64,000 nt of DNA from a phage, in the sequence record PQ400056.1; one strand, 5' to 3'. A model generated the notes under the pieces. The model searched no databases, was not told the origin of the DNA, and worked only from the letters and a program-made list of their open reading frames with translations. Positions 112-58,172 of the stretch are shown here, piece by piece. The translations under genes were made by a program, and so were the position numbers. The first letter of the stretch is position 1. The number at the start of each line of letters is the position of its first letter.

Positions 112-3100
112 ATGGCAGATTTTTCTCAACATTTCAAGGCCACATTTGGCTTTGACGCTGGTAATGAAAAGGTCGTCAATGTAGCATACGCAGATAAAAA
201 CACATCAACGGATGCGGTCAACGTTGAATTTTTCAATTACCATAATGGCATTACTCAGTATGACACAACTCGCGGTTATGATCAATACGGAACTACAATC
301 TATCAAAACCGTCCGTATTATGCAAAAGAAGATATCACAAAGCCAGCAGGTGATTTTGACCCGACTAAATGGCAAGCACTGCGCACGGACCCACGTTGGG
401 ATTATATTGCAGCAACTTCCGGTGATACTCCTTTACAGTCTGGTGATTATATCGCAGCAGATGGTCAATTTGCAAACTTGACTTTCTCTATGCCAACTAA
501 GCCAGCAGAGGGAGACACTATAACAGTAAAAGATATCGGTGGCAAGTGTGGTGTTAACGAATTATCGTTCTTGAGTACAGGACATGAGTTTTACCATAAC
601 GGTAATGTGTATAACCGAAAATGGTATTGCACTACCCCGTATGCAATGAACTATTTCATCTTTGTTCGTAATCGTTGGCATGTTTATCAGACAGGAACAG
701 AGCCACGCGGTGTGTACGCACAGCCAGCGATTGATGCTATTCAAATGCAGAATGGTGACCAGGTATTTCGTCGTAGTTCGTTGGGTAATATTACCTTAGT
801 GCTTCCTAAGTTTGCCAACAATGGCGACATGATCCAGACTACAGACCTTGACGGATTAACCGCAACCAACCACGTTACGGTTAAAGTTCATGAGCACGCA
901 GAAGAACAATCAATTGGCACGTCCGGTCTAAAAGAGATTATCGGTAAGCGTAGCGGTCATGGTGTATTCATCTTTGACAAGACGGAAAACTTATGGCGTT
1001 TGTGGGATGGTGATCAGTCTGTTCGTCTTAAACCGATCATCGATGACACTCGCTTGCAACCTAATAGCTATGTTGCTGTATTTGGTGATCGTGATGTTAC
1101 TCTGACGCTGCCGACCAATGTCGAGCCGGGTGATCGTATTCAAGTTTCTATGCAGTATATGAACGGAAACCAGAATTGCCGTATTATCACCGCCACAGAG
1201 GATACAAAAATCCTTATGCAGAAAAACATGGTTCAGTTTCCTAAGCGTAGCGAGTACCCATTCAATGGGACCGATACATGGACGGGAGTATCTGAATTGT
1301 CTTTCAACGCTGCAAATGATTATGTACCTTATCTGGAGTTCTCTTATTCAGAAGGTGATGATGGTAAGAAATACTGGTTGGTGGCACATGCTCACCCGAT
1401 TGTAGAACGAGTAGATCCGACTCGTAAAGATCGTGTTGGTGTAATTGCACTGGCTACCCAAACTGAAACGAATAAAAACCATGAAGAGAATCCTAGCGAC
1501 GAAGTTGCAGTAACACCAAAAATGCTGGCTAATAAAACCGCCAACGAAACTCGACGCGGTATTGCTCGCATTGCGACTCAAGCGGAAACGCATCAAGATA
1601 CTGGTTCCAACTTCCTGGATGATGTTATCGTTACGCCTAAAAAGTTAAATGACTGTGTTGCTACCGAAGCCCGTCGTGGTGTGATGGAAATTGCAACCCA
1701 GCACGAAACCAATGAAGGTTTAGACGATACCCGCGCTATTACTCCTAAGAAATTAGAAGAACGTCGCGCTTCCGAAGATCTCGCTGGTATTGCTGAAATT
1801 GTTCAGGCTGGCGGCAGTGCTGCCGCTCGACGTGGCGAAGCTGGTACAGGGATCTATAACATCAATGACCATGCTAAAATTGTTACGCCAAAAAACATCA
1901 ACGAAGTCAAGGCGACCGAAACTTCCCGTGGTGTTGGCTATCTGGCAACTGACGCGGAAGTGCAAGGGGCTACAGAATCAACCCCGCAAGATGCTTTACT
2001 AATCACGACTCGCACGCTAACGAAACGTACTGCTACCGAATCGCGCACTGGTATCGCTGAAATTGCAACTCAGGAAGAAACAAACTTAGGTCAAAGTGAT
2101 AACCATATCATCACGCCTAAAAAGTTGCATACTCGCCGCGCAACGGAAACTTTACACGGTTTAGCAGAAATTGCAACTCAACCGGAGTTTGACGCAGGTC
2201 GTGACGATTCTCGCATTTCTACCCCATTGAAGATTAAAACCTTCTTTGAGAATGCACAGCGTTTGAAAGTAGATCCGACTCAGGGGCTTAACCTTACTGG
2301 TGATTTGTGGCAAGGTATCATGATCAGCGGTCTGGATGCAACCGAAGACACAAAAGGTGTCGCTAAAGTTGCGACTACTCAGCTTACTGACGCTGGTCAA
2401 GATGATACTACAATCATCACGCCTAAAAAGCTGCAAGGCAAGAAGGCCACCGAAGGTAAAGAAGGCATTATCCGAGTTGGTACTCAAGCCGAAACCGTGG
2501 CTGGTATTATGGACAATGTAGCAATTTCTCCGAAGAACTTCAAATATGTTGTTCAGACAGAGGATACATGGAAAGCAACCGAAGCGCGTCGTGGATTCTT
2601 GAAAGTTGCTACTCAGGAAAACTGTTTTGTTGGTGATAATCTGCAAGGTTCTACTCAAGAACTAGGAAACTACCAGCATGACGGAATTGCTGTTACCCCT
2701 AAAGGATTAAACTACGCACTTGCTAATTTCTTACCTAAGATGGCAACCGCTCAGAATAGTTTGAAATTGGGTAACGTAGAGGCCTCTAAATGGGCGCGTA
2801 GAGACATTGATCAGACCATAGAGAGCAATTACACGTTTAATAAAAACGTTAACGTGAAGGGCGATTTAGAGTGCTTAAAATCAGGTTCCTTTGAAACTCT
2901 GTCTGTGACTAAGAACTCGACCGATGTTCCGAGTAATGGTCATCTGGTGTTGGGTGATCGTGGAGTTGACGGTCACACCGGAATTACTCTGCATGGCACA
3001 ACCGCATCGGAAGGAATGAAAAACTCTTGGTCTATTATCGTTGGTGGTACTGGAACAGCGCAAGTTGTTGATAGTGATGCTATCTCTTTCGGTAAAATCA

Positions 3101-3852
3101 ATGATGGTGGAGTCGTTGAGCATTACGCCTTTGCTATGAAACACAATGGCGACGCGACAGCATATAGAGACTTTATTGCAGGTCGTAACCTGTATGCGAA
3201 ACAAGGCGGTTTATACATTGTTGACCAGTCTAATCCGGCAATGACTCGTTCCCCAGATGGTACGCTGAATATCGGTCACGGTGGAAGTGTTAACATCAAG
3301 GCAGGGCATCAAACGTTAACTACAGAGATCGCCGGACAGAAGTATCAGATCGTACACGCAGGAAACGCCGACGAAGTTCTTAACCGTCAGTTTGTTAAGA
3401 ATGCTGGCGATACAATGGTCGGTAAGCTGACTATGGATAATGCGCCTATTGTTTCTGTTAAGCATGAAGCTAGCGCGGCAACCGCTCCGGCAATCGGTAA
3501 CATCGGTTTCTGGAATATGCGAGTTACTACCCAGAACATCAAAGAAACTTATCCAGAGAAGAAAAACGGTACTCTGATGCAATGGGGTACTGACGCGGAC
3601 GGGCTTACCCAGCTTTGGTCCCCTGATGGTACTCATAAACATTATATCCGTTCCGGTACTGGTGGTCAATGGACCGCATGGGGTGAAATTTACACCAAAC
3701 AGAACAAGCCTACCGCTCAGGAAATTGGGGCAGTGGTTGCCGAAGGTGGTTTGATGAACTCTATGACGGTTCGTGATTGGATCAAAGTTGGTAATGTTAA
3801 AATCATCGCCAATAATCTGACTCGTACCGTAGACTTTATCTGGGAAGACTAA
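112..3852 (+). CDS. 34: long tail fibre proximal subunit gp34
   Basis: 1246 aa; N-terminus and internal ITPKKL-type repeats match the remembered T4 gp34 pattern (PKPAGDFD, GDTITVKDIGGK, IARIATQAET); AGGAG SD at 99-103. Confidence 0.9.
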   Translation: MADFSQHFKATFGFDAGNEKVVNVAYADKNTSTDAVNVEFFNYHNGITQYDTTRGYDQYGTTIYQNRPYYAKEDITKPAGDFDPTKWQALRTDPRWDYIAATSGDTPLQSGDYIAADGQFANLTFSMPTKPAEGDTITVKDIGGKCGVNELSFLSTGHEFYHNGNVYNRKWYCTTPYAMNYFIFVRNRWHVYQTGTEPRGVYAQPAIDAIQMQNGDQVFRRSSLGNITLVLPKFANNGDMIQTTDLDGLTATNHVTVKVHEHAEEQSIGTSGLKEIIGKRSGHGVFIFDKTENLWRLWDGDQSVRLKPIIDDTRLQPNSYVAVFGDRDVTLTLPTNVEPGDRIQVSMQYMNGNQNCRIITATEDTKILMQKNMVQFPKRSEYPFNGTDTWTGVSELSFNAANDYVPYLEFSYSEGDDGKKYWLVAHAHPIVERVDPTRKDRVGVIALATQTETNKNHEENPSDEVAVTPKMLANKTANETRRGIARIATQAETHQDTGSNFLDDVIVTPKKLNDCVATEARRGVMEIATQHETNEGLDDTRAITPKKLEERRASEDLAGIAEIVQAGGSAAARRGEAGTGIYNINDHAKIVTPKNINEVKATETSRGVGYLATDAEVQGATESTPQDALLITTRTLTKRTATESRTGIAEIATQEETNLGQSDNHIITPKKLHTRRATETLHGLAEIATQPEFDAGRDDSRISTPLKIKTFFENAQRLKVDPTQGLNLTGDLWQGIMISGLDATEDTKGVAKVATTQLTDAGQDDTTIITPKKLQGKKATEGKEGIIRVGTQAETVAGIMDNVAISPKNFKYVVQTEDTWKATEARRGFLKVATQENCFVGDNLQGSTQELGNYQHDGIAVTPKGLNYALANFLPKMATAQNSLKLGNVEASKWARRDIDQTIESNYTFNKNVNVKGDLECLKSGSFETLSVTKNSTDVPSNGHLVLGDRGVDGHTGITLHGTTASEGMKNSWSIIVGGTGTAQVVDSDAISFGKINDGGVVEHYAFAMKHNGDATAYRDFIAGRNLYAKQGGLYIVDQSNPAMTRSPDGTLNIGHGGSVNIKAGHQTLTTEIAGQKYQIVHAGNADEVLNRQFVKNAGDTMVGKLTMDNAPIVSVKHEASAATAPAIGNIGFWNMRVTTQNIKETYPEKKNGTLMQWGTDADGLTQLWSPDGTHKHYIRSGTGGQWTAWGEIYTKQNKPTAQEIGAVVAEGGLMNSMTVRDWIKVGNVKIIANNLTRTVDFIWED

Positions 3853-3856
3853 TTAA

Positions 3857-3874
3857 AGGGGGCGAAAGCCCCCT
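3857..3874 (+). promoter_or_regulatory. GC hairpin between genes 34 and 35 (AGGGGGC-GAAA-GCCCCCT)
   Basis: perfect 7-bp stem with GAAA loop immediately after the gene 34 stop; no T-run, so probably an RNA structure rather than a full terminator. Confidence 0.3.
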
Positions 3875-3885
3875 ATGGGGTTATT

Positions 3886-5025
3886 ATGACACAAGATATA
3901 GAATTACGCAATACTGGAATTAGGTTTGCGCATTTCGACGAAGACTCTGCGACATTTACCAGCATTTCAGAAAATAACTCTGTGATGTATAAGCTGGAAG
4001 TGCGCGGATCTAATGCGGATTCTACCAAACCAGCAAGGATTAGATTTAATGGAGTGGAGATCGTTGGCACTGGCTATGAAAATGGCCTAAATTTTAAAGT
4101 TCTTACTCCAACTGGACAACTACACGAAGAAAAGGTATTCTATGGTCGCGGTGCTGTTTTGGCAATGCGTGATTATCTTTCTTTGCTGAAAGGTGACTAT
4201 ATCATTGCGATGGCAACGCATGGAGAATTGTTTGCAGATCCGATCAGTGATGGTGTATTCTCTAAGCTGGGATCTGTATCATTCCCGAATCACATTTTGC
4301 TACAGCAAATGCCTCGTGTATCATATGCAGCAATTTATTCTACTAAAATGGGTAAAATTGTGTGCGAAGGGATGCAAGCAACTCACGGGGAAGGACAAGA
4401 TTCATCTATACAAATTGAGAAAGTCTATGATACTATAGATGATCTTGCTATAACAGGAACACCACAACGATTTTTAGATTATCCGGTTGAGTATGTTAGC
4501 GAAGATGCCGAACATTTCGAGCTAATACAATGGCCTCATGATGAGACCAGCGCCCCACTTGAGGATTTTAACATAAAGGCAGGTGACAAACTATCAATAT
4601 CCTTTGAATTGTTCCGTGATAGTGCCGCAGCCGCAGCCAACGTAACAGCGCGTTTCTATCACAACTACTTCACCGATGGACAATATCAAACTGGTGTTCG
4701 ATACAATGCCAGCAAAAAAGACCAATGGGAAAAGTTTGAAGCCGTCTATACCGTACCGGAAGGAGTTGATAGTGTAGTAACTGGTTGTATCAGATATCCA
4801 ACCAACTCCAATGAAGGTATTGTTAAAATTAGAAACATACTAATAACGCCGATCAGTGGAGTCGTCAAAACTACTGGTCCTACTTCATTTGGTGTTAATG
4901 GTGTTAGAACAACTCATATTCAGGATAACGGTGATTTTACTAACCCTGTAATGAGTCTTCTTAAACTACCCAGAGATAATAAACACATCACATCCAACAA
5001 CTTTAAAGAGTTCGATGTTGATTAA
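3886..5025 (+). CDS. 35: long tail fibre hinge protein gp35
   Basis: 379 aa; position between 34 and 36 and size match T4 gp35 (about 372 aa). Confidence 0.7.
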   Translation: MTQDIELRNTGIRFAHFDEDSATFTSISENNSVMYKLEVRGSNADSTKPARIRFNGVEIVGTGYENGLNFKVLTPTGQLHEEKVFYGRGAVLAMRDYLSLLKGDYIIAMATHGELFADPISDGVFSKLGSVSFPNHILLQQMPRVSYAAIYSTKMGKIVCEGMQATHGEGQDSSIQIEKVYDTIDDLAITGTPQRFLDYPVEYVSEDAEHFELIQWPHDETSAPLEDFNIKAGDKLSISFELFRDSAAAAANVTARFYHNYFTDGQYQTGVRYNASKKDQWEKFEAVYTVPEGVDSVVTGCIRYPTNSNEGIVKIRNILITPISGVVKTTGPTSFGVNGVRTTHIQDNGDFTNPVMSLLKLPRDNKHITSNNFKEFDVD

Positions 5026-5035
5026 CATTTTTAAC

Positions 5036-5066
5036 AAGCCGATCCATGTGGTCGGCTTTATTTTTA
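5036..5066 (+). terminator. rho-independent terminator after gene 35
   Basis: stem AAGCCGA / TCGGCTT with 9-nt loop followed by TTTATTTTT. Confidence 0.6.
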
Positions 5067-5186
5067 TACAGTTGGTTAAATTGTAACCAAAACGAAGAAA
5101 GATCTTTAGAATAATAGAAAATTTGTTTCGGTTAAAAAATAGCCAGTGCCTACGGCACGTCGCGAAGCGATATTTTGTTAACATTC

Positions 5187-5194
5187 TATAAATA
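5187..5194 (+). promoter_or_regulatory. T4-type late promoter TATAAATA for gene 36
   Basis: exact TATAAATA 33 nt upstream of the gene 36 ATG. Confidence 0.55.
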
Positions 5195-5227
5195 CTCGGA
5201 ACTATAACTAATTTTTGAGGTTACTTT

Positions 5228-6718
5228 ATGGCAGATTTGAAATATGGATCTACTGTAGGTGGATCTCCCATTTGGACGCAAGGAAACTTGACGATCCAGC
5301 CAGCGGGGGATCAGCTTTTCTACAAAGGTCATAAAATCTATACCGCTTTTGATAGACCTTCGGCTACCGATTTTGATGCTGTTAGTGCATCCGAAGGTGG
5401 CACATTTCAAAAGCAAGTTCATTTCGAGGAAGGTTTAAGCGTAGGTAGCGCATCGGCTGGAGAAACCAAAAAGAATGGTATCTTTAAAGGTCAGAGCGAC
5501 GCTGCTAATTTTGACGGCGTAAGCTGGGGTTTGCATTCATGGAAGTCAATCGGCTTTGTTAATGCCCGTGATGGCGTTATTATGGCGTATATTGACACCA
5601 CAACGGGCGAATTTAAGTCTAAAGGGACTATCGAAGGGACAACCATTAAAGACACAGGTCAACGTGTCTATAGCCCTGTTAATAAACCAACGAATAATGA
5701 TTTGGATTTAGTTTCCCGTCGCGGTGATACTCTCTCAGGAACGTATAATTTAAACACTGTCACTGTTAAACTATCGGTTGATTCGAAATTAATTGCAAGG
5801 GAACGTGATTTAATTAATTTTGATGCGACTAAGATCTATTATGGTAACGTTCTTGATACGTTGGTCTTCCGAAGTAAAGATGAGCCTACCATTTTTGTTA
5901 ATGGCAGAGAAGGTCGTTTTTATCACACCAACAATAAACCAACTAAAGCCGATGTTGGGCTAGGCAATGTCACCAATGATGCACAGGTTAAACGTGCTGG
6001 TGATATTATGGAAGGTAACTTGCAAGCGCCTAGAATGTTGGCGACAAACGATCCCGCTGGTCCTAATGAATTGGTTCGTTTGAGCTACTTTGAGCGAAAA
6101 TCAATGGTAGCAAATCCAACCATCATTGGAAACGTTGATTGGAACACTCTTATTAATCGCGGTATCTATCGTGTGGAAAATGCTGGGTCAGGTACTAATA
6201 AACCGTCTGATAGCTATTATAACGGCGTTTTGATGGTATATCGACCAGAAGATGCGGTCGGTACTCGTCGAATTGTTCAGGTGTATTATCCTGAATCTAT
6301 TGACCATCCGATGTGCTGGCGTTCGTGTTCTAATGAATCATGGACTGCATGGAACTATGTAGATCACCGTAAATTAGCCGATATTCGCTATGTTAACGTA
6401 ACTGGCGATACCATGACAGGACCGTTAACTGTTCCGGCTGCAAATGGCGTTAGAACAGCTAAAACTAACTATAACGGGGATAACTGTTATGCGGCGTTAA
6501 GCGGTGCTGATGGTACTGCTATGATTCACCGCATTAGTGATATTAAAGGGACCGAAAAGCTGGGGATCACCCACGACTCAAAGGTCGTGTTTTTCCGTTC
6601 TCGAAACAATACTCAAACCGTGGACCGCTATCAGCTTTATCATGAAGGTAATAAACCTACTCCGGCTGATGTTGGAGCGGTTCCACTTAATGCGGTGATT
6701 GATTTTGGTACTTTCTAA
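5228..6718 (+). CDS. 36: long tail fibre distal subunit gp36 (enlarged)
   Basis: 496 aa; N-terminus MADLKYGSTVGGSPIWTQGN matches T4 gp36 MADLKVGSTTGGS; about twice the T4 length (about 221 aa). Confidence 0.8.
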   Translation: MADLKYGSTVGGSPIWTQGNLTIQPAGDQLFYKGHKIYTAFDRPSATDFDAVSASEGGTFQKQVHFEEGLSVGSASAGETKKNGIFKGQSDAANFDGVSWGLHSWKSIGFVNARDGVIMAYIDTTTGEFKSKGTIEGTTIKDTGQRVYSPVNKPTNNDLDLVSRRGDTLSGTYNLNTVTVKLSVDSKLIARERDLINFDATKIYYGNVLDTLVFRSKDEPTIFVNGREGRFYHTNNKPTKADVGLGNVTNDAQVKRAGDIMEGNLQAPRMLATNDPAGPNELVRLSYFERKSMVANPTIIGNVDWNTLINRGIYRVENAGSGTNKPSDSYYNGVLMVYRPEDAVGTRRIVQVYYPESIDHPMCWRSCSNESWTAWNYVDHRKLADIRYVNVTGDTMTGPLTVPAANGVRTAKTNYNGDNCYAALSGADGTAMIHRISDIKGTEKLGITHDSKVVFFRSRNNTQTVDRYQLYHEGNKPTPADVGAVPLNAVIDFGTF

Positions 6719-6722
6719 TTTT

Positions 6723-6747
6723 AGCGGGGATTATCTCCCCGCTTTTC
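6723..6747 (+). terminator. rho-independent terminator after gene 36
   Basis: AGCGGGGA-TTATC-TCCCCGCT followed by TTTC. Confidence 0.5.
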
Positions 6748-6788
6748 TAAATAATATTATTCTAATAACCGTTTAAGGATTTTATAAA

Positions 6789-9719
6789 ATGGCAGATTTA
6801 AGCAGAATCCAATTTAAACGCACTAGCACTAAAGGTCGTAAACCGGATGCTAGTACGATGAATCCGGGGGAATTGGCAATCAACCTTGCGGATCAATATC
6901 TTCTTACTAAAAATGATTCCGGTGATATTATCAATTTAAGTTGTCCTCCGGTGTATGACCGCGATGTTACAATGGCGGGTAAGGTTAAAGGTAATAATTA
7001 TATCTTAAGTAAAACCGCTAACTATCTGGAAGATCAGACAGCGAGAGATCTTAACTACTTTGGTGCTTTCCGTACCAATGGTCTTGATGGTCTTCTCGAA
7101 CTCACGCTAAACGTTCCTCACTCTTCCGGTGTCCAATATGGTCGAGGATTTACTTTCCAGTATGGACATACTGGATCACGAGTAGAAACCTATGGCTATA
7201 ATAGAGAAGGTCAAAAAGCATTTAGCTATAAAATGTATCACGAAGGTGATAAACCAACTCCAGGAGAATTGAACGTCTATAGCAAACAAGAAGTTGACCG
7301 TATGTTTGTTAAGAACGTTAAACTTGCTACATCTCCTCGTGATATCGTTGAAGGCTATTTTAAATTAGCAACTGCAATGATTCCACAAAACGGTCTTAGC
7401 GTATTTTTCCGTATTCATGGCGGTAACGGATATAACGTTACTGCATACGATCAAGTTGATATTGTAGAAATTGTTATTCGCAGTGGAAATGGTCGCCCTA
7501 AAGGTGTTAACGTTATTGCATATCGCCGAAATACAAACAAATCATTTGATGTTTTGGCTGTTAATACTTCTGGTGATAACTATGATATCTATGTGAAATA
7601 TCAGCGTTACACTGATAACGTTATTGTTGAATTTGGTAAAAGTGTTGGTGTTAATCTGGTAGTTCATGACGTTCCAGATTTTGTTGCTGAACGTCCTGCT
7701 GGTGATAATGTTATTGGCGGTCGTGCTGTAACTCTTTTCAACACCGAAAATAAACGTGGTGTGTTAAGTTTTGATGATAACACACAAAACAGCTATGACA
7801 TTGTTCATCTAAGTAATGATAAAGGTACTGGACGGAAATATATTCGTAAATTCCGTAGCAATTATAACGAAATGGTTTGGCATGAAACCGTTCAGGGTGC
7901 TGTATATCGTCTTGCTACTGGTGCTACAGATTCTACAGAAGTTATTAGAATTGATTCTAATAGTGCAATACCGGGTAATTATAAAGGATATGTAATTACT
8001 GGTAAAATGGAATTGCACGGTGGTGGTAATGCGATGACTTTACATCGACAGACTGGTCAAGCTGCATATATGGCGTGGTGGGGTCGTCGTGATGGTAAAA
8101 ACCAACGTAGTGGTTATATCGGTCATGCGGATGGTACTAGTGATGGTTTTGTGTGGCGTAATGATGTTGGTGCTAACTCATTTGATTTGGAAGGTAGTGG
8201 ACAAGTAAATTTGACTACAGGAAAAACAAAAATTGTATATACCAATGGTCAATATTATTCCGCTAACGCTGATGCATTCCGTATGATTTACGGTAAGTAT
8301 GGTGCATTCTGGCGAAATGATGGTGGTAAAGTTTATCTGTTGTCTACTGCCGAAAATGATAGATTTGGTGGTTGGAATACATATCGACCTTTTATCTACG
8401 ATCTTACTTCCGGTAACGTTCAATTAGGTGGTGATGGAAACGAAGATGTATTAACTCTAGAACGCGCAAGCAAGGCCGCTCGATTCTCTGGCAACGCTTA
8501 CATCAAAGGTCAACATTTAACATTTGATGCTGGTGCTGGACAATCCCGCGATTACTTCCGGTTTAACCATTGGGGCGATAGTAATAACGCTCGCGATAAC
8601 ATCCTACAGATTGAAGACAGTCAGGGTGCACACTTTACCACTGAACGCGCTATGGGTACTGGCAATATCACAGCACGTTTTAAAGGCTTTGTGCGTGTAG
8701 AATCCGGTGAGATTGCCTTTGATGCTAATCGTGGATCTGCGTCTCAATTTACCTTACATACATGGGGTAACGAGCAACGCAAACAGGTTTTTGAATGTAA
8801 GGATGCTACTAGTTATCATTGGTATACCGAACGTACAAACGGTGGAACTGGTCCTATCCTGTTCTCTGTTGCTGGTACATTAAAAACTGCGAGCAATATA
8901 CAGGTTGGCGGTGCTGATATTGAGTTTCGTCGCAGTGGTAATAAGCATTTATGGTTTAGAGATCCGAACGGTTTAGAATTAGGTTTGATGTACTGCGATG
9001 ATGCTGGTGTTATCCGCTTCCGTGGTCAGAAACAAGGTCAAACTTGGAAACTTGCTGATAAAATGATTCATCTTGAGGCGGGGACTGTCGGCGGGTCTGA
9101 TAAAGGTTTGATTCGTGGTAATGTTGCTGGTGGTAGCTGGGCTAGCTGGCGTGATCGTTCTGCCGGAATCCTCGTAGACTGTCCGAACTCAACCGATTCC
9201 GCTCATAACATCTGGAAAGCGACTCATTGGGGAAAATATCATATTGCGGCAATGGGTGTGCATGTTCCTAGTGGTACTATTACCAATGCTTTAGCTCGCC
9301 TAAACGTTCACGACGCCAACTTTGACTTTAACGCTGCGGGTGATTTTAGCGCAGGTCGTAACGGTAGCTTTAACGATGTTTATATTCGTTCTGATACTCG
9401 CCTTAAAATCAATAAGGAAGAGTATAAGGAGAATGCCACCGATAAAGTTAATCGCTTGACGGTATACACCTATGACAAGGTTAAATCTTTAACCGACCGT
9501 ACTGTCATTGCTCATGAAGTTGGTATTATTGCTCAGGATCTTGAAAAAGAATTGCCGGAAGCCGTAACAACTTCTAAGATCGGCGATCCAGATAATCCAG
9601 AAGAGATCTTAACAATTTCTAACTCCGCTGTCAACGCTCTTTTAATTAAGGCGTTTCAGGAAATGAGCGAAGAATTGAAAGCCGTTAAAGCTGAACTAGC
9701 GGAACTTAAAAAGAATTAA
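6789..9719 (+). CDS. 37: long tail fibre distal subunit gp37 with C-terminal intramolecular chaperone domain
   Basis: 976 aa; N-terminus MADLSRIQFKRTSTKGRKPDAS matches T4 gp37 MATLKQIQFKRSKIAG; last about 110 aa (9390-9716) carry the SDxRLK ... VGIIAQ ... coiled-coil signature of self-cleaving C-terminal chaperone domains. Confidence 0.85.
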   Translation: MADLSRIQFKRTSTKGRKPDASTMNPGELAINLADQYLLTKNDSGDIINLSCPPVYDRDVTMAGKVKGNNYILSKTANYLEDQTARDLNYFGAFRTNGLDGLLELTLNVPHSSGVQYGRGFTFQYGHTGSRVETYGYNREGQKAFSYKMYHEGDKPTPGELNVYSKQEVDRMFVKNVKLATSPRDIVEGYFKLATAMIPQNGLSVFFRIHGGNGYNVTAYDQVDIVEIVIRSGNGRPKGVNVIAYRRNTNKSFDVLAVNTSGDNYDIYVKYQRYTDNVIVEFGKSVGVNLVVHDVPDFVAERPAGDNVIGGRAVTLFNTENKRGVLSFDDNTQNSYDIVHLSNDKGTGRKYIRKFRSNYNEMVWHETVQGAVYRLATGATDSTEVIRIDSNSAIPGNYKGYVITGKMELHGGGNAMTLHRQTGQAAYMAWWGRRDGKNQRSGYIGHADGTSDGFVWRNDVGANSFDLEGSGQVNLTTGKTKIVYTNGQYYSANADAFRMIYGKYGAFWRNDGGKVYLLSTAENDRFGGWNTYRPFIYDLTSGNVQLGGDGNEDVLTLERASKAARFSGNAYIKGQHLTFDAGAGQSRDYFRFNHWGDSNNARDNILQIEDSQGAHFTTERAMGTGNITARFKGFVRVESGEIAFDANRGSASQFTLHTWGNEQRKQVFECKDATSYHWYTERTNGGTGPILFSVAGTLKTASNIQVGGADIEFRRSGNKHLWFRDPNGLELGLMYCDDAGVIRFRGQKQGQTWKLADKMIHLEAGTVGGSDKGLIRGNVAGGSWASWRDRSAGILVDCPNSTDSAHNIWKATHWGKYHIAAMGVHVPSGTITNALARLNVHDANFDFNAAGDFSAGRNGSFNDVYIRSDTRLKINKEEYKENATDKVNRLTVYTYDKVKSLTDRTVIAHEVGIIAQDLEKELPEAVTTSKIGDPDNPEEILTISNSAVNALLIKAFQEMSEELKAVKAELAELKKN

Positions 9720-9759
9720 GGAAACTCCCAGGGAAGGGAACTACTAAGGAGAAACGGCT

Positions 9760-9999
9760 ATGGTCTATAATATCGTCATTGGTGCTTTGTCTAATTTCGG
9801 AATGAAATTATTGTCAAAGTTAATTAGTGAAAAGATGCTCACTAAAATTTTCTTCTATTGCGCTCGTCGTCTTGCGGCCTATACCAATACGCCAATTGAT
9901 GATCGTTTCGTGGAAGAACTTTATAAGGAGTTTAATAAAGATCAGTCAGAAGATAGTAACGAGCAAGATAAACCTAGTGATAGTCAAGTACCTAAATAA
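9760..9999 (+). CDS. hypothetical protein (79 aa) in the position of gene 38
   Basis: ORF between gene 37 and holin t; no similarity to the T4 gp38 adhesin/chaperone recognised. Confidence 0.35.
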   Translation: MVYNIVIGALSNFGMKLLSKLISEKMLTKIFFYCARRLAAYTNTPIDDRFVEELYKEFNKDQSEDSNEQDKPSDSQVPK

Positions 10000-10032
10000 G
10001 AGTACACTGTCATAGTTATCTTAGGGCATTAT

Positions 10033-10689
10033 ATGCAAGTTTCTGAAAAAGGGAAAGACTTTGCTATCTCAAATGTCCTGCGCGCTATTTTCACAACTAA
10101 AAGCACGGAGTTGCTCGTACTTCGTGTTTTTGCTGCCGTCGTGTTGTCCATATTAGCATTTGTCGTTTATAGTAAAAACGAGTTATTTGCGCTTTATAAA
10201 GAGACTCGTTATGAGACTTATGCTCACATTCTCCAGGTAGAGAAAGACCGCAATTTTGATAATGCAGCACAGGAGCAGTTACAGATAGTTCATGTGTCGG
10301 CTGATGCCGATTTTTCTGCTGTTTTTAGTTTTCGTCCGAAAAACCTAAACTATTTTGTTGATTTGGTGGCATATGAAGGAAAGCTACCGCATACAATCGA
10401 TGAAAAAAATTTAGGCGGATTCCCTATCAATAAAACGAGTGAAGAATATCGTAGGCATCTTTTAGGTAAATCATATTTTACCGATAAAGATTTCCAGTAT
10501 ATTCCATCAAGAGAAAAGAAATTAGAGAATATCGATATAGGTTTCATGTATTCTTGTCCTATATTCAATCTCGATAATGTCTATTCTGGTAGTATCGCCA
10601 TTTCATGGAAGAATAAACCGGATATTGACATTGAGAATTTAGATACTCTTTGCAATCAATCTGCCAGAATCCTCGGAAGGATTAGATAA
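10033..10689 (+). CDS. t: holin T
   Basis: 218 aa, same length as T4 T; motifs LEQLQIVHVSADADFSAVFSFRPKNLNYFVD and YSCPIFNLDNVYSGSI match remembered T4 holin sequence. Confidence 0.9.
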   Translation: MQVSEKGKDFAISNVLRAIFTTKSTELLVLRVFAAVVLSILAFVVYSKNELFALYKETRYETYAHILQVEKDRNFDNAAQEQLQIVHVSADADFSAVFSFRPKNLNYFVDLVAYEGKLPHTIDEKNLGGFPINKTSEEYRRHLLGKSYFTDKDFQYIPSREKKLENIDIGFMYSCPIFNLDNVYSGSIAISWKNKPDIDIENLDTLCNQSARILGRIR

Positions 10690-12539: not shown

Positions 12540-13298
12540 TTACTTGCAAACGTATTGATCTACATCAATTGCGCCACCGAATGTGGGATGACGTTTTTCA
12601 AATCGAATAGTTCCGTCGTTTGGTTCGAAAACGGAGTATTCATATAGATCTTTCTTGCCAACATTCTTATAAAACCCGCCTTTCGTCATAACGGTTTCTT
12701 GTACGTTTGCTTTGTGTACGTTGTATTCATCAATGTATACAAAATCAACCATCTTCCCATTTTTAATGGTTACTTTAAGATCCCCTGGCTGGTTTCCATA
12801 TTTTGCATACAGTGGAGCCTCTTTAATTTTTGTGGAAATTCCATCTTTCATACTCCACTCATAACGAACGGTGCATTGATAGGTAAAAGTTTCGACCTTC
12901 GGTTCTTCTACCACTTTTGCTTCCTGTTTCGGTTGTTCTTCTTCAACCTTCGCAGAAGTCTCTGAATCGCTTTCTGACGCGGTTTCTTCTTTAGGTAATA
13001 CATTCATCAAGTTTTGGATTTGAGCGTTATATACAGCCTCCAGTGGCTGAATCTGCCCGATATTGATCATTGTATCACGAACAGTTTTATTCCAGTTTCG
13101 TTGCTCTTGTTTCAGAGACGGATCAATCTTAACAGCCTTAACATACACCTCATGAAGTTTAGAGTCCAGTGCGGAGATAGACTCATTAGCACAAATAAAC
13201 TTCTCTGATTTGGTAGTAGCTTTAGCGCAATCAAAGGACGCAGCGTTAGCACCGAAAGCAGTAGCAGAAAGAACGATAGCAGCGATAATGTTTTTCAT
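12540..13298 (-). CDS. secreted protein with DUF1311/LprI-like N-terminal domain
   Basis: 252 aa; signal peptide MKNIIAAIVLSATAFGANA; ASFDCAKATTKSEKFICANESISALDSKLHEVY resembles the two-cysteine DUF1311 motif; E/K-rich linker then a C-terminal domain; ATG 13298 with GAGGA SD. Confidence 0.6.
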   Translation of the reverse strand: MKNIIAAIVLSATAFGANAASFDCAKATTKSEKFICANESISALDSKLHEVYVKAVKIDPSLKQEQRNWNKTVRDTMINIGQIQPLEAVYNAQIQNLMNVLPKEETASESDSETSAKVEEEQPKQEAKVVEEPKVETFTYQCTVRYEWSMKDGISTKIKEAPLYAKYGNQPGDLKVTIKNGKMVDFVYIDEYNVHKANVQETVMTKGGFYKNVGKKDLYEYSVFEPNDGTIRFEKRHPTFGGAIDVDQYVCK

Positions 13299-24514: not shown

Positions 24515-25183
24515 TTATCCCCTTTGTTTCTTAACTGAATTTGGATCTGGATTTTCTGGTAGGTCTTCCAGACCCATAGCATAACGTTGTGCATAGATTA
24601 GCATAAGAATATCGCGAGCGCAATCATGAATTGCATCATGTGCGATAAAACCATCTAGCGTACCCATTGGTAACGGACACTCACACATCCCGCGATGCAT
24701 CAATGTACGCTCAATGGCGGTGCGAACATCTCGGATATTCCAGAATCGCACAGGTTCAAGATTGAACGTCTCTCGTGTATTGTGTGCACGGCGGATCATA
24801 TCAACTAGTAACGGAATATCAAACGCATTACCGCGTGACCACAATACGGATTTAACCGGATCTACCCCTACGGCTTCACAGAATGCGTTAAAACGCGCTA
24901 AACCTTCTTTAGTTGATACTTCCGTACCATTTGTGATTAATTGCTTTCTCATGCCTTCTGAGGCGGTATTCTTCCACCATTCAACCACACCATGATCAAA
25001 CACCCTTACACCTTTCTGGGAAGGAATATCAAATTTTACCAGAAAGGAATTGTCAACCAGTTCTTTAAATGTAGGTGGGTTGTGCGGATCTTCTTTAAAT
25101 CCGATTGCCGCCATATTGATAACCGCCCCATCAGGCGGATAACCTAAACTTTCAAAGTCAATCATTAAATCCACTGGAAGCAT
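24515..25183 (-). CDS. dexA: exonuclease DexA (DnaQ-like DEDDh 3'-5' exonuclease)
   Basis: LMIDFESLG (DxE motif) and HDAIHDCARD (H/D motif); adjacent to dda as in T4; ATG 25183 with GGAGGA SD. Confidence 0.8.
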   Translation of the reverse strand: MLPVDLMIDFESLGYPPDGAVINMAAIGFKEDPHNPPTFKELVDNSFLVKFDIPSQKGVRVFDHGVVEWWKNTASEGMRKQLITNGTEVSTKEGLARFNAFCEAVGVDPVKSVLWSRGNAFDIPLLVDMIRRAHNTRETFNLEPVRFWNIRDVRTAIERTLMHRGMCECPLPMGTLDGFIAHDAIHDCARDILMLIYAQRYAMGLEDLPENPDPNSVKKQRG

Positions 25184-25184
25184 T

Positions 25185-25604
25185 TTAAATATCCTCCGCG
25201 ATATGCCGGAACAACTCCAGATCGTTTTTATCCAGAATGAAACCGCTACAATCAATAATCCCGTTACCGTAATTATCGGTTAACAGTCGTTCCGTTGCCA
25301 TGTATGCGCGTACTTTGTTGTTAAAATTCATTACATGTTGTGCATAGTCACAATGAATCTTTTGACGGTTCCACGCGACAATTGATTGTAGATGTATTAC
25401 ATTAGCCACATTATTAATAACAACCATATCAAAACCCTCGCTTAGTGGAATGTTCTGACATTTTATTGATACATACAGCTTGGTAGTCACGAGATTTTTT
25501 GACGAATTAAGAGCTACGGCCAAAAAATCCTGTAACTGTTCGTTTGTCATTGTTGGCTTACACCGCGTATCTAAACTCTTCTTTCTTCTAGCTTCATTAG
25601 CCAT
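25185..25604 (-). CDS. hypothetical protein (139 aa)
   Basis: minus-strand ORF; contains copy B of a 57-bp direct repeat (25425-25481). Confidence 0.4.
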   Translation of the reverse strand: MANEARRKKSLDTRCKPTMTNEQLQDFLAVALNSSKNLVTTKLYVSIKCQNIPLSEGFDMVVINNVANVIHLQSIVAWNRQKIHCDYAQHVMNFNNKVRAYMATERLLTDNYGNGIIDCSGFILDKNDLELFRHIAEDI

Positions 25605-27175: not shown

Positions 27176-27489
27176 TATCCTAAAATCCTCACCTTGCGAA
27201 CACAGATAGTATTGAGTTCTCGCCGTACCCGTTCTTTTTCATATTCAGGAATTTTATATTCGATACCATCCCGAACAATTTCAGAAGACCGGATTATGCC
27301 AAATTTTCGTTTAGGTACAACCTTGTATTTCGGTTCACCAGCCAATAGACTCTCACAATAATCTATCTGATCACACATTGACGCTAACGCAGCATCATGT
27401 GTTTCGCAAGTTAGGACGCGACCTTTCGCGTCCACTGAGTATTGAAAGAATCCGTCTTTATCACGATAACATACAGCAAATACATGCAT
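27175..27489 (-). CDS. hypothetical protein (104 aa), dda.1 position
   Basis: ORF with ATG/stop overlap to dda. Confidence 0.5.
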   Translation of the reverse strand: MHVFAVCYRDKDGFFQYSVDAKGRVLTCETHDAALASMCDQIDYCESLLAGEPKYKVVPKRKFGIIRSSEIVRDGIEYKIPEYEKERVRRELNTICVRKVRILG

Positions 27490-28244
27490 TATAAACCTAC
27501 CTTCGCTTTCATCAATTCAATCCACGACGCATCAATCGGAAGCCCGTATTTCACGCGTTCTTTTTGTGCTGGCGTTAAGTTCTCATACTTAGAAAGAGAT
27601 TCAATCAAAACGCTGGTATATTTTAGCACGATTTCGGTATTGTTTGCAATAGCCTTAAGTTTTTCTTCTTTCTTGTTGATTTCGCTAAGGGCTTGCTTGA
27701 GATCTGCAATTTTCTGATAACGTTCTTCCATACGGAAGAGAGTATTTTTAATCGCTCGCTCGGCTGCCTCTGCTTTCTCCGGTTCGTTGTGCTTTTTATG
27801 GCGCTCGATTGCTAATTTCTTTTCTTCGATTGCCATTTCCTGATTTTTGATGCGATTCTCGTTAAGTTCGATCCACTCGATGTACTTCGCACGTAGGGCA
27901 ATTTCATCATCAGAAAGTTTACCGTTAGTTCCTAGTTCCTGGATCTCTTTAAGAGATTCGATAGTGTGATTGCCACGGAAAGAATTGTATTTCAGTTTAA
28001 CCGGAATTACATTGCCATCAACATATCCCAGATTGCAATCAATGCGCTCTAAGGAGAGTCCGTCATCACCTTCACCGAAAGCCTCACCTGAATAGGCACA
28101 ATGAGTCTGACGGTAAATGTTACGAACAGTGACTAAGCTCATAGAGAAGTCTTTGTTGCGACGTGAAGCACCAGCCATGATAGAGTTCAGCCGGAAAACA
28201 ACCAGCGCCAATTCTTCGTTAGATTTAAAAGCAAACAGTTTCAT
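27489..28244 (-). CDS. hypothetical protein (251 aa), in the position and size of T4 Srd
   Basis: position after dda and size resemble T4 srd; CAYSGEAF...LSLERID..NLGY..GNV stretch of unclear affinity; coiled-coil C-terminus; assignment is tentative. Confidence 0.4.
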   Translation of the reverse strand: MKLFAFKSNEELALVVFRLNSIMAGASRRNKDFSMSLVTVRNIYRQTHCAYSGEAFGEGDDGLSLERIDCNLGYVDGNVIPVKLKYNSFRGNHTIESLKEIQELGTNGKLSDDEIALRAKYIEWIELNENRIKNQEMAIEEKKLAIERHKKHNEPEKAEAAERAIKNTLFRMEERYQKIADLKQALSEINKKEEKLKAIANNTEIVLKYTSVLIESLSKYENLTPAQKERVKYGLPIDASWIELMKAKVGL

Positions 28245-44740: not shown

Positions 44741-45765
44741 TAACTTTTTGCGCTATTTACTTCTGCTAAAAGTTCATCAGAGATACGCTTAACTGCCGCA
44801 AGTTCTTCCGGTTCTAGGTTTTGTTCTTCCAGATATTCATAGACCATCTGAATAGTGCTTTTAACTTCAATAACACCTGTTTCCTGTGATGCGCTACTCT
44901 CCAGTTTATGGACCACTTTTAGCTTGTGTACAACGGCCTCTAACGCGCTTTCTAACTTAGTTAACCCATTATCAGCAACCGTTGCAATAAGACGCACACT
45001 AAGCCCCTTAAAGCGTTCTACATCGATTTTATCATCTGACGGGTAAGTGATACGCACATGATAAGTTTTGTCATTCTGGATAAACTCTTTTTTGTGTGTA
45101 TCGGTATCGAATACCCAAAACCCACGCGGATCGTTTTCGTCACCCGCCGTTAGTGTGTATGGTGTACCGATATACGTTACATTACCGCCATCGCTGATAG
45201 TATGAAAATGACCGGAAAACACTTCACGGTATTTCTTGAGGAAGTCCGCGCTATAACCTTCGGATTTTAGCCCTTTATAGAAATAGTAACCGGACAATTC
45301 CCAATGGCCTACACAATATTCGCTGAATGAGTTTTGAATAAACTCTAAAATCTCTGATTTATTGTCATCACAAAACCACGGGAACAGATCAAATGATACA
45401 CCATCAAAGGTAACTGTTTCCGGTTTATCGATAACCTTAATGCAATCATACTGGCTTAACACTTCACGCGGTGCGTTAGGCTGGATCTTGTTTCGTTTAA
45501 ACATATCATGGTTCCCGACCGTGATATAACAAGTAATTCCAGCCTCTTCCAGTAATGGGATGACCTTAGTACGGTTAAATTTCATGGTTTCATGGGTAAT
45601 TGCTTTTCGGCAATCAAACCAATCCCCTGTTTGAATCCATGTCTTAATATTATGCTCTTTGGAGTATTCAACCGCCTTCTTGATGGTATCAAGAATATAC
45701 TCATGCACCCACGGATCATCGCCACCGATACCAGTATGCAGATCACCTAAAAGCAAAATTTTCAT
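44740..45765 (-). CDS. 47: recombination nuclease gp47 (Mre11/SbcD-like)
   Basis: 341 aa; MKILLLGDLH, GDWFD, TVGNHD, GHWELSGYYFYKG, GHFHTIS, GDENDPRGFWVFDT match remembered T4 gp47. Confidence 0.92.
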   Translation of the reverse strand: MKILLLGDLHTGIGGDDPWVHEYILDTIKKAVEYSKEHNIKTWIQTGDWFDCRKAITHETMKFNRTKVIPLLEEAGITCYITVGNHDMFKRNKIQPNAPREVLSQYDCIKVIDKPETVTFDGVSFDLFPWFCDDNKSEILEFIQNSFSEYCVGHWELSGYYFYKGLKSEGYSADFLKKYREVFSGHFHTISDGGNVTYIGTPYTLTAGDENDPRGFWVFDTDTHKKEFIQNDKTYHVRITYPSDDKIDVERFKGLSVRLIATVADNGLTKLESALEAVVHKLKVVHKLESSASQETGVIEVKSTIQMVYEYLEEQNLEPEELAAVKRISDELLAEVNSAKS

Positions 45766-45855
45766 AGTCTCTTCCTCTCTTCGTTTTCGATGCTCTCACT
45801 ATATCACAGAAAAATAAAAAGGGAAACCCCTTTCAGAGTCTCCCTTATAAAGCCA

Positions 45856-46143
45856 TTACAGCATACTTAATACCGTTTGCCGTGTACTAATCCACATAGC
45901 AGAAAGCAGTTCTGGCGTGTGTGGCTGTTTGTAGATATCACGTAACTTTCCGATAGCGTAGATATACGCATCACGGTTATCATCGATGATAGCTTGTTCA
46001 GCCCACCGCTTAAGGCGTGCAATCTCTCGCGAGTTCTTACGCAAGATCTTTTCCGCTTTCTTAGCGGCTTTAGCCTCTAGTTCTGCTTGTACTTTGTCTA
46101 CTTCATTCACTGCAATCTGGTCATGCTGTTCATTGCAAGTCAT
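45856..46143 (-). CDS. hypothetical protein (95 aa)
   Basis: minus-strand ORF between 55 and 47; no alpha-glucosyltransferase-sized gene here. Confidence 0.45.
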   Translation of the reverse strand: MTCNEQHDQIAVNEVDKVQAELEAKAAKKAEKILRKNSREIARLKRWAEQAIIDDNRDAYIYAIGKLRDIYKQPHTPELLSAMWISTRQTVLSML

Positions 46144-49625: not shown

Positions 49626-49634
49626 ATTACCAAC
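49599..49634 (-). repeat. 18-bp tandem duplication (2 copies, 17/18 identical)
   Basis: plus-strand AACAAACATATTACCATC then AACAAACATATTACCAAC; duplicates GNMFVD/GNMFVV codons. Confidence 0.8.
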
Positions 49635-50451
49635 CTCGCTCTTTACCAATCAAAAATTCAACTTCACGACGTTTAATGTCTTCTTGAAGGTCTTTAATCT
49701 TCTGGCGATCTTGCATGATTTCATCCATCTTGTCAAGTGCCGCAATGAAATCATCGAAACGTTCAAAGGTTTTACCTTCATTTGCTTCGCCAAATTTAAC
49801 CATTGTCAGGCCGTAACGACTACTAAACAGACGTTTCAACTGTCCAACGATCTTAGAATCAGTGGTTATAACTTCCAATTCTTCTACTTCACGAAAGAAT
49901 TTTCTATCAGAATCAATAAACCAGCTAGTTCCTTTATGGTCTCTATCTTCGGTTGCGCTCATTAGAGTATGGTCTTTACCATCAATTTCAATTACATCAA
50001 TTTGCCCACATGGACTAACATTTTTAACAGTAAAAGGTCTATAATTTATTGCTCGTGCAATAACATAATTAAGGTTAGATACGTTTTCAGCATAATGGCA
50101 GAAGTCGGTCATAGCATTCGCATCTTTCCAAGTATAAGTTTTACCAACTTCCCATTTCTGGGGAACTTCTTCAACTTCACGAAAGAATTTTCTATCGAAT
50201 GGACTAAAGAAATATGTGGCAGTCCAAATGTCTTTTCCTGTAGCAGTTTTCGCCGTATGATAAACACCGTCTAGCTCTATTGCATCAATCCAACCGTTAC
50301 CATCGATCTCGATGATGGTAAATGGCTTGTCACCAATAGCTGCACTAATATCGCTGTTAAGTGGAGAAAGAACACCTTCTCCGTTAGTAATAAACTCAGT
50401 TTTAGCGTTTTCATCTTTCCAGGTGTAGGTTTTACCAATTTCCCATTTCAT
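49627..50451 (-). CDS. paralogous-family protein, member 2 (internal two-fold repeat)
   Basis: 274 aa; MKWEIGKTYTWKDENA ... DRKFFREVEE repeated as QKWEVGKTYTWKDANA ... DRKFFREVEE. Confidence 0.55.
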   Translation of the reverse strand: MKWEIGKTYTWKDENAKTEFITNGEGVLSPLNSDISAAIGDKPFTIIEIDGNGWIDAIELDGVYHTAKTATGKDIWTATYFFSPFDRKFFREVEEVPQKWEVGKTYTWKDANAMTDFCHYAENVSNLNYVIARAINYRPFTVKNVSPCGQIDVIEIDGKDHTLMSATEDRDHKGTSWFIDSDRKFFREVEELEVITTDSKIVGQLKRLFSSRYGLTMVKFGEANEGKTFERFDDFIAALDKMDEIMQDRQKIKDLQEDIKRREVEFLIGKERGW

Positions 50452-52213: not shown

Positions 52214-52741
52214 TTATTTTAAATTTTTTCGAATGTAGTCAGACCATTCCTTCCCTGTCAGTTCGGTCCCATTCTGGAAACTGAAATATTCATACGGCAT
52301 CGAGTCAAGATAAAACAGGATCATACATCGCGCCATATAATACCAATCACGATTAAAGTAAACTACGTTATCGCCAGTACCATCAGCACCTTTATCATAA
52401 CCATCGCGGGTACGGGCGACCCATTGAATAGTATCATTTTTCTCACGGATCGTAACAGGTTCCCAATATCCAGCACATCCAGCATGACCACACGAACAAG
52501 TAATGAAATATTGTCCTTTTGCTTTGTTGTCATCCCATTCACGATGGATTGGTTCGATCTCGTGAAACAGTGCTAAGCAATCATGATTATGCAACACTGG
52601 CTTACCATCAATCAATGCATGGAATGTATACAAACGACCCGTAGACAAATAGCTATCCTCACGCTCAACCAGTTCAATAGCAATCTTTTTAGCTCGTTCT
52701 TTGTGTCGTTGTGCTTTACGCTTACGGTTTAATGATTTCAT
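52214..52741 (-). CDS. hypothetical Cys/His-rich protein (175 aa)
   Basis: basic N-terminus MKSLNRKRKAQRHKERAKK; HNHDCLALFHEIEPIHREW and CSCGHAGCAGYW suggest metal binding; ATG 52741 with GAGGTGA SD. Confidence 0.5.
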   Translation of the reverse strand: MKSLNRKRKAQRHKERAKKIAIELVEREDSYLSTGRLYTFHALIDGKPVLHNHDCLALFHEIEPIHREWDDNKAKGQYFITCSCGHAGCAGYWEPVTIREKNDTIQWVARTRDGYDKGADGTGDNVVYFNRDWYYMARCMILFYLDSMPYEYFSFQNGTELTGKEWSDYIRKNLK

Positions 52742-52758
52742 ATTCACCTCACACATTA

Positions 52759-53298
52759 TCAAAGGTCGCGATATAGTACATTATGAAAATGAGAACTTGC
52801 ATTACCAATATTGTAGATAATAAATTCTTCATCCGGCGCTTGCGCTACAAATTGAGTATGAGCAACCGCCACAACCTTAAAAATACGATCCGTGATCTTG
52901 TGTTTAATTTCTGCCCCTACTTCCATAGGAACATATTCATTTGTTTCTGTTTCAGTCGCAAAACAGCCATCTTCTTCATAAGCACGAACAAATCGATCGC
53001 AATCAGTACGCTTAACAAATTCAAGAGTATACAATTCTCGTGAATTGTCGGTATAGACCAATACAGAATTATTATGATAGCGAATCACATACAGGTTATT
53101 ATCATCGTCAATTACGCAAAAGCTACGGATTCCTTCGCCTTTACTCCAGCAGATATTAACCACCGTTCCTCTAATAAAAAAACTTTCCTTTAAATTAAAA
53201 CTAGTCAATGTGCTAGCGTGCATTTTAACAACAACACCATCGCCAATTTCCAGTTTACGAAGTTTAACTTCTTTGTTCAGTACACAAAACATCATCAT
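52759..53298 (-). CDS. hypothetical protein (179 aa)
   Basis: first gene after the nrdD terminator-promoter pair; ATG 53298 with GAGAGG SD. Confidence 0.5.
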   Translation of the reverse strand: MMMFCVLNKEVKLRKLEIGDGVVVKMHASTLTSFNLKESFFIRGTVVNICWSKGEGIRSFCVIDDDNNLYVIRYHNNSVLVYTDNSRELYTLEFVKRTDCDRFVRAYEEDGCFATETETNEYVPMEVGAEIKHKITDRIFKVVAVAHTQFVAQAPDEEFIIYNIGNASSHFHNVLYRDL

Positions 53299-53327
53299 GT
53301 TGTCCTCTCGTTGTTTTCGATGTGAGC

Positions 53328-53355
53328 ATTATACATTAGCTAATCATGTTGTCAA
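53328..53355 (-). promoter_or_regulatory. consensus sigma70-type promoter TTGACA, 16 nt, TATAAT
   Basis: minus-strand TTGACA (53355-53350), TATAAT (53333-53328); mirrored on the plus strand at 56596-56623 in the inverted copy. Confidence 0.6.
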
Positions 53356-53361
53356 CACCCC

Positions 53362-53393
53362 AAAACGAAAAAGCCGACCCTTTCGGATCGGCT
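53362..53393 (-). terminator. rho-independent terminator after nrdD
   Basis: minus-strand AGCCGATCCGAAAGGGTCGGCT followed by TTTTCGTTTT. Confidence 0.6.
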
Positions 53394-53398
53394 GAAAT

Positions 53399-55262: not shown

Positions 55263-55404
55263 TGTATCACCTATGAAAAAGCGGGATTTCTCCCGCTCGT
55301 TGATAGTTATTTTACCAGTTCTGCTAATTCTTTTTCTTTAGCTTCTAGTTCAGCTTTAAGCTGTTTAATCTCTTGTCGCTTCTTATTCATATTACGCTAA
55401 AGAA

Positions 55405-57721: not shown

Positions 57722-57800
57722 CCATCTGATGGTTGCTTTTAGTGATTGCCGACAGCATCCGGGGAAGTACAATAATAAATGGGAATTGATGACCTGTTAA

Positions 57801-58060: not shown

Positions 58061-58166
58061 TCATCCAAGCATCACACATCACTATGCCGACACAGAAGAC
58101 ACCGTGCTGGAAATTCAGCGGCTGGCTACCGTCTGCCGCGACACCCTGAATGGCATGACGAAGTAA
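58061..58166 (+). other. 3' fragment of a truncated upstream ORF of the P2-like replication region
   Basis: open frame ...HPSITHHYADTEDTVLEIQRLATVCRDTLNGMTK ending 7 nt before the gene A start; 5' part absent. Confidence 0.3.
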
Positions 58167-58172
58167 ATCACT

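Follow-up and report, generated by a model that had tools for sequence, protein, structure and literature searches.

The distal tail-fibre locus of an RB49-like Krischvirus: a gp37 with an intramolecular chaperone domain and, probably, a gp38 cap encoded at a distance

Introduction

A gp37 subunit that carries a chaperone domain and is capped by gp38 characterizes the long tail fibres of phages T2, T6 and S16 (PMC9569957, PMC7917993). In S16, gp37 is cleaved at DLNVS^SDRRIKK, and the motif DVYIR^SD(G/T)RLKI of the T2-like fPS phages aligns to this site; once the chaperone domain has left, the DVYIR strand serves as the platform on which the N-terminal domain of gp38 docks (PMC7917993). For RB49, it has been reported that the chaperone domain of gp37 is cleaved off, that a gp38 monomer then attaches as a cap, and that host-range mutants carry the substitutions E230K and Y231S in gp38 (PMC9569957). 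Variants of gp38 decide the choice of receptor in Krischvirus (PMC12032242), and the g38 of RB49 is displaced, with a small open reading frame in its place (PMC3157838, in a passage that cites Desplats 2002).

T5 pb1 and the K1F endosialidase have a domain of the same Pfam family, with a serine, a lysine at +5 and a C-terminal coiled coil, and release some 110-130 residues; in pb1 the Thr1263-Ser1264 bond is cut, Ser1264 being activated by Lys1269, five residues downstream (PMC4690869). T4 gp37 has an HxH iron-binding needle and no chaperone domain, and needs gp38 as a chaperone.

Here we analyze the fibre genes in a 64,000-nucleotide stretch of phage DNA (the window), for which a preliminary description had suggested a receptor-binding tip and an assembly pathway different from those of T4 or T2. 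The best-supported reading is that the fibre differs from that of T4 in tip and folding route, and from that of T2 only in the location of the gp38 gene. Such an arrangement is already known, having been present in GenBank ever since the genome of RB49 was deposited and being explained in the literature (PMC3157838, PMC9569957).

Gene order and phage lineage

Positions 112-10689 of the plus strand hold six consecutive open reading frames, gp34, gp35, gp36, gp37, ORF79 and holin t, with gene names supported by PHROG and Pfam scans; NCBIfam gave no match for gp36, gp37 or ORF79. The features of the locus are as follows.

112-3852, plus strand: gp34, proximal long-tail-fibre subunit, 1246 residues (phrog_972 over 1-1246 of 1246; colinear with RB49 gene 34)
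3886-5025, plus strand: gp35, proximal hinge connector, 379 residues (phrog_1154, E 4.8e-126; counterpart of RB49 gene 35)
5036-5058, plus strand: terminator-like hairpin 3' of g35, a 9-bp stem followed by a T run (consensus match only)
5187-5194, plus strand: T4-type late promoter motif TATAAATA, 34 nt 5' of g36 (exact match)
5228-6718, plus strand: gp36, distal hinge connector, long form, 496 residues (99% identity to RB49 gp36)
6789-9719, plus strand: gp37, precursor of the distal long-tail-fibre subunit, 976 residues (phrog_1699, E 4.6e-187)
8064-8399, plus strand: Gp34_trimer-type domain within gp37, residues 426-537 (Pfam PF21446, E 6.4e-38)
9375-9389, plus strand: DVYIR strand, gp37 residues 863-867 (same motif as in the T2-like fPS phages, PMC7917993)
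9390-9719, plus strand: Peptidase_S74 intramolecular chaperone domain, gp37 residues 868-976 and stop (Pfam PF13884, E 8.6e-11)
9760-9999, plus strand: ORF79, homologue of RB49ORF251w/dc5, 79 residues (97% identity to the RB49 frame; phrog_402, E 5e-20)
10033-10689, plus strand: holin t, 218 residues, final gene of the rightward late block (Pfam Phage_holin_T, E 4.5e-61)

Gene order and lengths match those of the RB49 locus (AY343333 145039-155628: 34-35-36-37, RB49ORF251w/dc5, t), with 496 residues for gp36 and 79 for ORF79 in both phages, and 976 versus 979 for gp37. Congruent with this, megablast places the fibre region in Krischvirus (RB49, Phi1, JSE and many recent isolates), and the window displays the synteny of that genus, being colinear with RB49 from 88 to 55387 at 95-98% identity. 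The nearest complete genome is vB_EcoM_PTE-Eco09, with a backbone identity of 99.4% over 25 kb. On synteny and sequence identity, we assign the region to an RB49-like Krischvirus coliphage, of whose long-tail-fibre operon it represents the distal half. Homology to T4 extends over the N-terminal 171 residues of gp36 and the N-terminal ~60 residues of gp37, and the operon has the same position upstream of t.

The window contains only three copies of TATAAATA, a number not above chance, and position is thus the sole argument for a late promoter 5' of g36. Scanning the window for the motif revealed none ahead of g37, ORF79 or t, from which we infer that g36, g37 and ORF79, possibly together with t, are co-transcribed.

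The chaperone domain and predicted cleavage site of gp37

That gp37 ends in an intramolecular chaperone domain had been proposed from its C-terminal hallmarks, and profile searching bears this out: PF13884 (Peptidase_S74, "chaperone of endosialidase") matches residues 868-927 with an E-value of 8.6e-11 and 42.4 bits, exceeding the curated Pfam cut-off of 22 bits. The C-terminus shows YIRSDTRLKINKE at 865-877, VGIIAQDLEKELPEA at 911-925 and, up to residue 976, a helical tail of heptad-like character; from the sequence we judge that a coiled coil would end the domain, which occupies the final 109 residues at the extreme C-terminus. When the last 263 residues were compared with all PDB sequences, the sole significant match was S16 gp37 (6F45_A, E 1.7e-4), in an alignment that spans the cleavage motif through the C-terminal helix and places the tail NALLIKAFQEMSEELKAVKAELAELKKN on the helix of the S16 chaperone domain. 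The two domains are homologous and have the scissile S-D-x-R-x-K motif in common, whereas no sequence relationship to S16 is seen in the shaft preceding the last strand, only the chaperone domain being alignable.

The motif reads DVYIR^S868-D-T-R-L-K873 and positions Lys873 at +5 from Ser868. Since this is the Ser/Lys(+5) geometry of T5 pb1 and S16, cleavage of gp37 is predicted at R867^S868, by homology with these proteins. Counted from the motif to residue 976, it would release 109 residues, in agreement with the approximate figure offered earlier. The DVYIR strand (863-867), identical to that of the fPS phages (PMC7917993), lies directly before the predicted cut, as is expected of the gp38-docking strand in a T2/T6/S16-type tip, and by the same homology mature gp37 would end with this strand, which would serve as docking face for the N-terminal domain of gp38.

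As already pointed out in the preliminary description, gp37 has no His-rich tip of the T4 type. There are no HxH motifs, versus eight in T4 gp37, and tblastn within the 64-kb window detects neither the T4 gp37 tip nor T4 gp38. The fibre thus has neither the HxH metal-binding needle nor the T4-type gp38 chaperone that together define a T4-type tip.

The Gp34_trimer-type domain of gp37 matches the T4 gp34 structures 4UXE and 5NXF by sequence. Overall, gp37 is 81% identical to that of RB49, with 86-96% over residues 751-976 (the last ~225, covering tip and chaperone domain), and the differences are concentrated in the shaft segments 151-350 and 601-700, at 46-72% identity; gp36 and ORF79, for comparison, reach 99% and 97%. 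By alignment, the gp37 allele is a new mosaic in the shaft, not in the tip. In the pre-cleavage tip, residues 801-850 share no more than 86% identity with RB49, so that a divergent gp38 allele is a possible partner.

gp38 is encoded away from the fibre genes in relatives

In S16, T2 and T6 the gp38 gene directly follows g37, and T4 likewise carries gene 38 in this slot, which in the window holds ORF79. It had been proposed that no gp38 homologue exists, and this holds for the 64-kb window, where tblastn yields chance matches only. It does not hold for the lineage, as RB49 and the relatives named below encode gp38 some 59 kb away; the further reading, that the phage lacks a gp38 adhesin and for that reason differs from T2, falls with it, an adhesin of this kind being encoded elsewhere in relatives with the same gp37 C-terminus.

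In RB49, g38 is annotated at 45367-46143, ~59 kb from g36. Its product is an end-to-end homologue of the S16 adhesin 6F45_D (E 1.5e-50) and represents a T2/S16-type adhesin with glycine-rich motifs and N-terminal tryptophan prongs, the two proteins sharing the N-terminal attachment motif MA....WVGSS.V.ETGQ.W with its conserved tryptophans. The close relatives that were recovered by megablast of the fibre region and are included in the tblastn listing for gp38 carry g38, among them SAP, TB34, PTE-Eco09, ELT3, JSE, Whisky, Cognac, SSG23 and GoldenSnicker, at 79.8-100% identity and in each case tens of kilobases from g37.

RB49 colinearity puts the expected g38 at ~64.2-65.2 kb in window coordinates, just past the window end, and the phage sequence already breaks at 55,387, before this site. 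Because the site where relatives carry the gene lies beyond the window, absence from the window says nothing about the phage, which by analogy with its relatives presumably encodes gp38. Window frames of gp38-like size (among them 12540-13298, 24515-25255, 27489-28244 and 49627-50451) were considered and rejected, being LprI-like, exonuclease-like or of unknown type, and RB49ORF143w, located between g8 and g9, turned out to be a methyltransferase rather than the displaced g38.

The displacement of g38 is a matter of gene order rather than of mechanism. Anyone who annotates Krischvirus genomes or predicts their host range has to seek the receptor-binding protein far from the fibre operon, and reading the fibre locus in a limited window leads to the false conclusion that this protein is missing.

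The small open reading frame in the gp38 slot

ORF79 had been described as unrelated to gp38, an assessment with which our comparisons agree: tblastn reveals no relationship to T2/RB49-type gp38. Two further identities were rejected for ORF79: that of a T4 gp38 chaperone remnant, the resemblance amounting to a seven-residue coincidence (EELYKEF) with an hhalign probability of 1.6%, and that of a homologue of the T4 antiholin RIII, with which no alignment was obtained. The frame matches phrog_402, a family of unknown function, and its homologues bear the precomputed label PF26925. In the AlphaFold2 model (pLDDT 68), three helices are accompanied by an acidic tail that is disordered, the N-terminal helix being only borderline hydrophobic. 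Among the listed Krischvirus phages ORF79 is 96-100% conserved while gp38 varies, which argues against a role as adhesin. ORF79 is a small three-helix late protein, not a gp38 substitute.

Members of the family were detected by tblastn in 392 phage records, belonging to Krischvirus, Ounavirinae, a Yersinia phage and some Vibrio and Aeromonas phages. Exhaustive HMMER searching adds a handful of relatives of 62-76 residues; giant repeat proteins from the same search (3836 and 2491 residues) were dismissed as low-complexity artefacts with incoherent Pfam matches. Scans of viral contigs with four distant relatives gave no matches.

In Ounavirinae, as in Krischvirus, the family gene lies directly 3' of the tail-fibre gene. 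It is followed there by a frame of 110-125 residues that combines a transmembrane segment at the N-terminus with a coiled coil and bears the label "holin" in phage mistaenkt, and then by a strand switch. Compared by gene order, Krischvirus and Ounavirinae, two myovirus lineages that are not related, share the succession of a distal tail-fibre gene, an ORF79 family gene and a holin or holin-like transmembrane/coiled-coil gene. Elsewhere the setting varies, the family member being located 3' of a lysozyme-like gene, not of a fibre gene, in Vibrio phage 1.144.O, and among structural genes in two Aeromonas phages. That the family represents an uncharacterised partner of the lysis machinery (for example a holin regulator), or a link from fibre completion to lysis, rather than a filler of the gp38 slot, is a tentative idea that we are more inclined to doubt than to adopt.

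Proposed assembly of the fibre

Very probably, the fibre follows the route of T2, T6 and S16, in which a self-cleaving gp37 chaperone domain is combined with a gp38 cap, here encoded ~59 kb away. According to this scheme, gp36 and gp37 would be synthesized late, probably from TATAAATA at 5187, and three gp37 chains would fold with the aid of their own C-terminal chaperone domain (868-976). Upon formation of the correct trimer, Ser868, activated by Lys873, would cut the R867-S868 bond and the 109-residue domain would depart. This would expose a flat tip of three DVYIR strands, onto which one gp38 would dock via its N-terminal tryptophan prongs, supplying the receptor-binding surface. The 496-residue gp36 would serve as the genus-typical connector, with a T4-like N-terminal part and additional shaft and knob modules.

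Given that T5 and K1F have chaperone domains of this very Pfam family, and that neither the locus nor the window contains a gp38 homologue, one may ask whether the gp37 tip itself binds the receptor following removal of the chaperone, without any gp38, in the manner of the T5 L-shaped fibre or the endosialidase tailspikes and by a pathway unlike those of both T4 and T2. We consider this highly improbable: RB49 and the listed relatives with the same gp37 C-terminus encode gp38 elsewhere, the strand preceding the scissile serine is the DVYIR motif for gp38 docking (PMC7917993), the host-range mutations of RB49 fall in gp38 (PMC9569957), and the region where gp38 is expected lies outside the window. 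For T5 and K1F, binding or degrading the receptor is the task of the matured protein itself, whereas the matured tip of the window gp37 is the proposed docking platform for a separate adhesin. Of the earlier suggestion that tip and assembly depart from both T4 and T2, the first half is upheld by the chaperone domain and the missing HxH needle; the second is not.

It is just as improbable that ORF79 functionally replaces gp38 as a new adhesin or fibre-assembly chaperone. It does occupy the gp38 position, is probably co-transcribed with g37 and has family members 3' of tail-fibre genes also in Ounavirinae. However, with 79 residues, three helices, an acidic tail and no glycine-rich motifs it shows no significant similarity to either T4 gp38 or T2-type gp38; it is conserved where gp38 varies, the opposite of what is seen for an adhesin; gp37 already has a chaperone domain of its own; and in the Vibrio phage it is a lysozyme-like gene, not a fibre gene, that precedes the family member. 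Less credible still is that this phage lost gp38 through a real genome rearrangement, as might be read from the right end of the window, where, past the end of phage colinearity at 55,387, there come first an inverted copy of phage DNA and next prophage DNA of E. coli. The junction looks like that of a chimeric read or assembly, with a perfect (100%) foldback of 2,317 nt, a 340-nt low-complexity filler rich in G and A, and host prophage sequence at 99.9% identity. Moreover, a T-even-type phage without adhesin would not adsorb via its long fibres, and the nearest complete genome encodes gp38. The T2/T6/S16 route with a distantly encoded cap hence remains the reading that we favour.

The long form of gp36

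The earlier comparison of 496 residues for gp36 with 221 in T4 is correct and refers to a long-annotated property of the genus. Only residues 1-171 align with the 221-residue T4 protein (37% identity, E 3e-29), and residues 172-496 constitute extra fibre modules beyond this gp36-like N-terminal part, making the protein more than twice as long as its counterparts in S16, T2 and T6. Identity amounts to 99% with RB49 and 100% with PTE-Eco09. A tblastn search with gp36 gave 72 phage records in which the match spans 80% or more of its 496 residues, and those listed at full length are Krischvirus; in the remaining ~1,370 records, similarity does not extend beyond the N-terminal ~170 residues. By this distribution a long gp36 typifies the whole genus; it has been annotated since RB49 and is nothing new.

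Within the extension, two motifs are repeated, YH.(G/N)NKPT.ADVG at ~232-245 and ~470-483, and GD.M.G.L at ~258-265 and ~393-400. The AlphaFold2 model, built from a shallow alignment, is poor overall (mean pLDDT 43.8), with one confident compact domain at residues ~300-380 (pLDDT 66-83). Foldseek searches with the model gave the C-terminal region of T4 gp34 and R-pyocin fibres as best, weak matches, which are no more than suggestive of an extension composed of ordinary shaft and knob modules. As simple arithmetic, the per-chain length of gp36 and mature gp37 adds up to 496 + 867 = 1363 residues, compared with 221 + 1026 = 1247 in T4.

Module sharing in gp37 and the setting of ORF79

The distal long-tail-fibre subunit gp37 carries, within its 976 residues, a domain otherwise named for the proximal subunit gp34, and solved T4 gp34 structures match this segment:

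8064-8399, Gp34_trimer domain within gp37 (residues 426-537; PF21446, E 6.4e-38)

With Gp34_trimer present in gp37, the proximal and distal subunits of the fibre offer an example of a shared module. Downstream of gp37 lies ORF79, a 79-aa ORF, and the order of tail fibre, small ORF of the ORF79 family and holin-like ORF is common to Krischvirus and Ounavirinae, as seen in the window (9760-9999) and at the loci L005, L036, L039 and L040, each with a family member. At the Ounavirinae locus L005, the fibre upstream of the family member has a T4-type gp37_C tip (PF12604), without a chaperone domain.

Right end of the window

Colinearity of the window with the Krischvirus coliphage RB49 ends at 55387, slightly beyond the start of nrdD, and 55388-64000 is not contiguous phage DNA. 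Following this junction are:

55405-57721, perfect inverted copy of 52230-54546 (100% identity)
57722-58062, G/A-rich low-complexity filler
~58063-63955, E. coli chromosomal P2-like (P88-type) prophage DNA (99.9-100% identity)

Rather than biology, 55388-64000 seems to reflect a chimera in a read or in the assembly, with a foldback joined to host DNA. The prophage piece encodes:

58173-60938 (+), P2-type replication gene A protein (PF05840, E 1.7e-129)
61119-62240 (+), AAA ATPase with C-terminal HTH

The prophage match extends to about 63955, and the annotation of E. coli genomes that share it includes a gene for an S8-family peptidase in this stretch. This content is cargo adjoining gene A of a P2-like prophage, and could represent a defence-type gene pair.

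Additional ORFs

Several further ORFs of the window deserve mention:

53399-54664 and 54600-55262 (-), phage nrdD as two overlapping ORFs
12540-13298 (-), protein of 252 aa; signal peptide, then LprI (lysozyme inhibitor) domain in the N-terminal part (E 1.4e-5)
49627-50451 (-), 274-aa ORF, part of which is duplicated in tandem

Whereas nrdD is one 1863-nt gene in RB49, it is divided between two ORFs here, the probable cause being a frameshift, an error in sequencing or pseudogene status. The LprI-domain protein has an RB49 homologue, RB49ORF260c. The 274-aa ORF found no match in Pfam; its two copies each comprise the motif KWE(I/V)GKTYTWKD(E/A)NA and the next ~90 residues.
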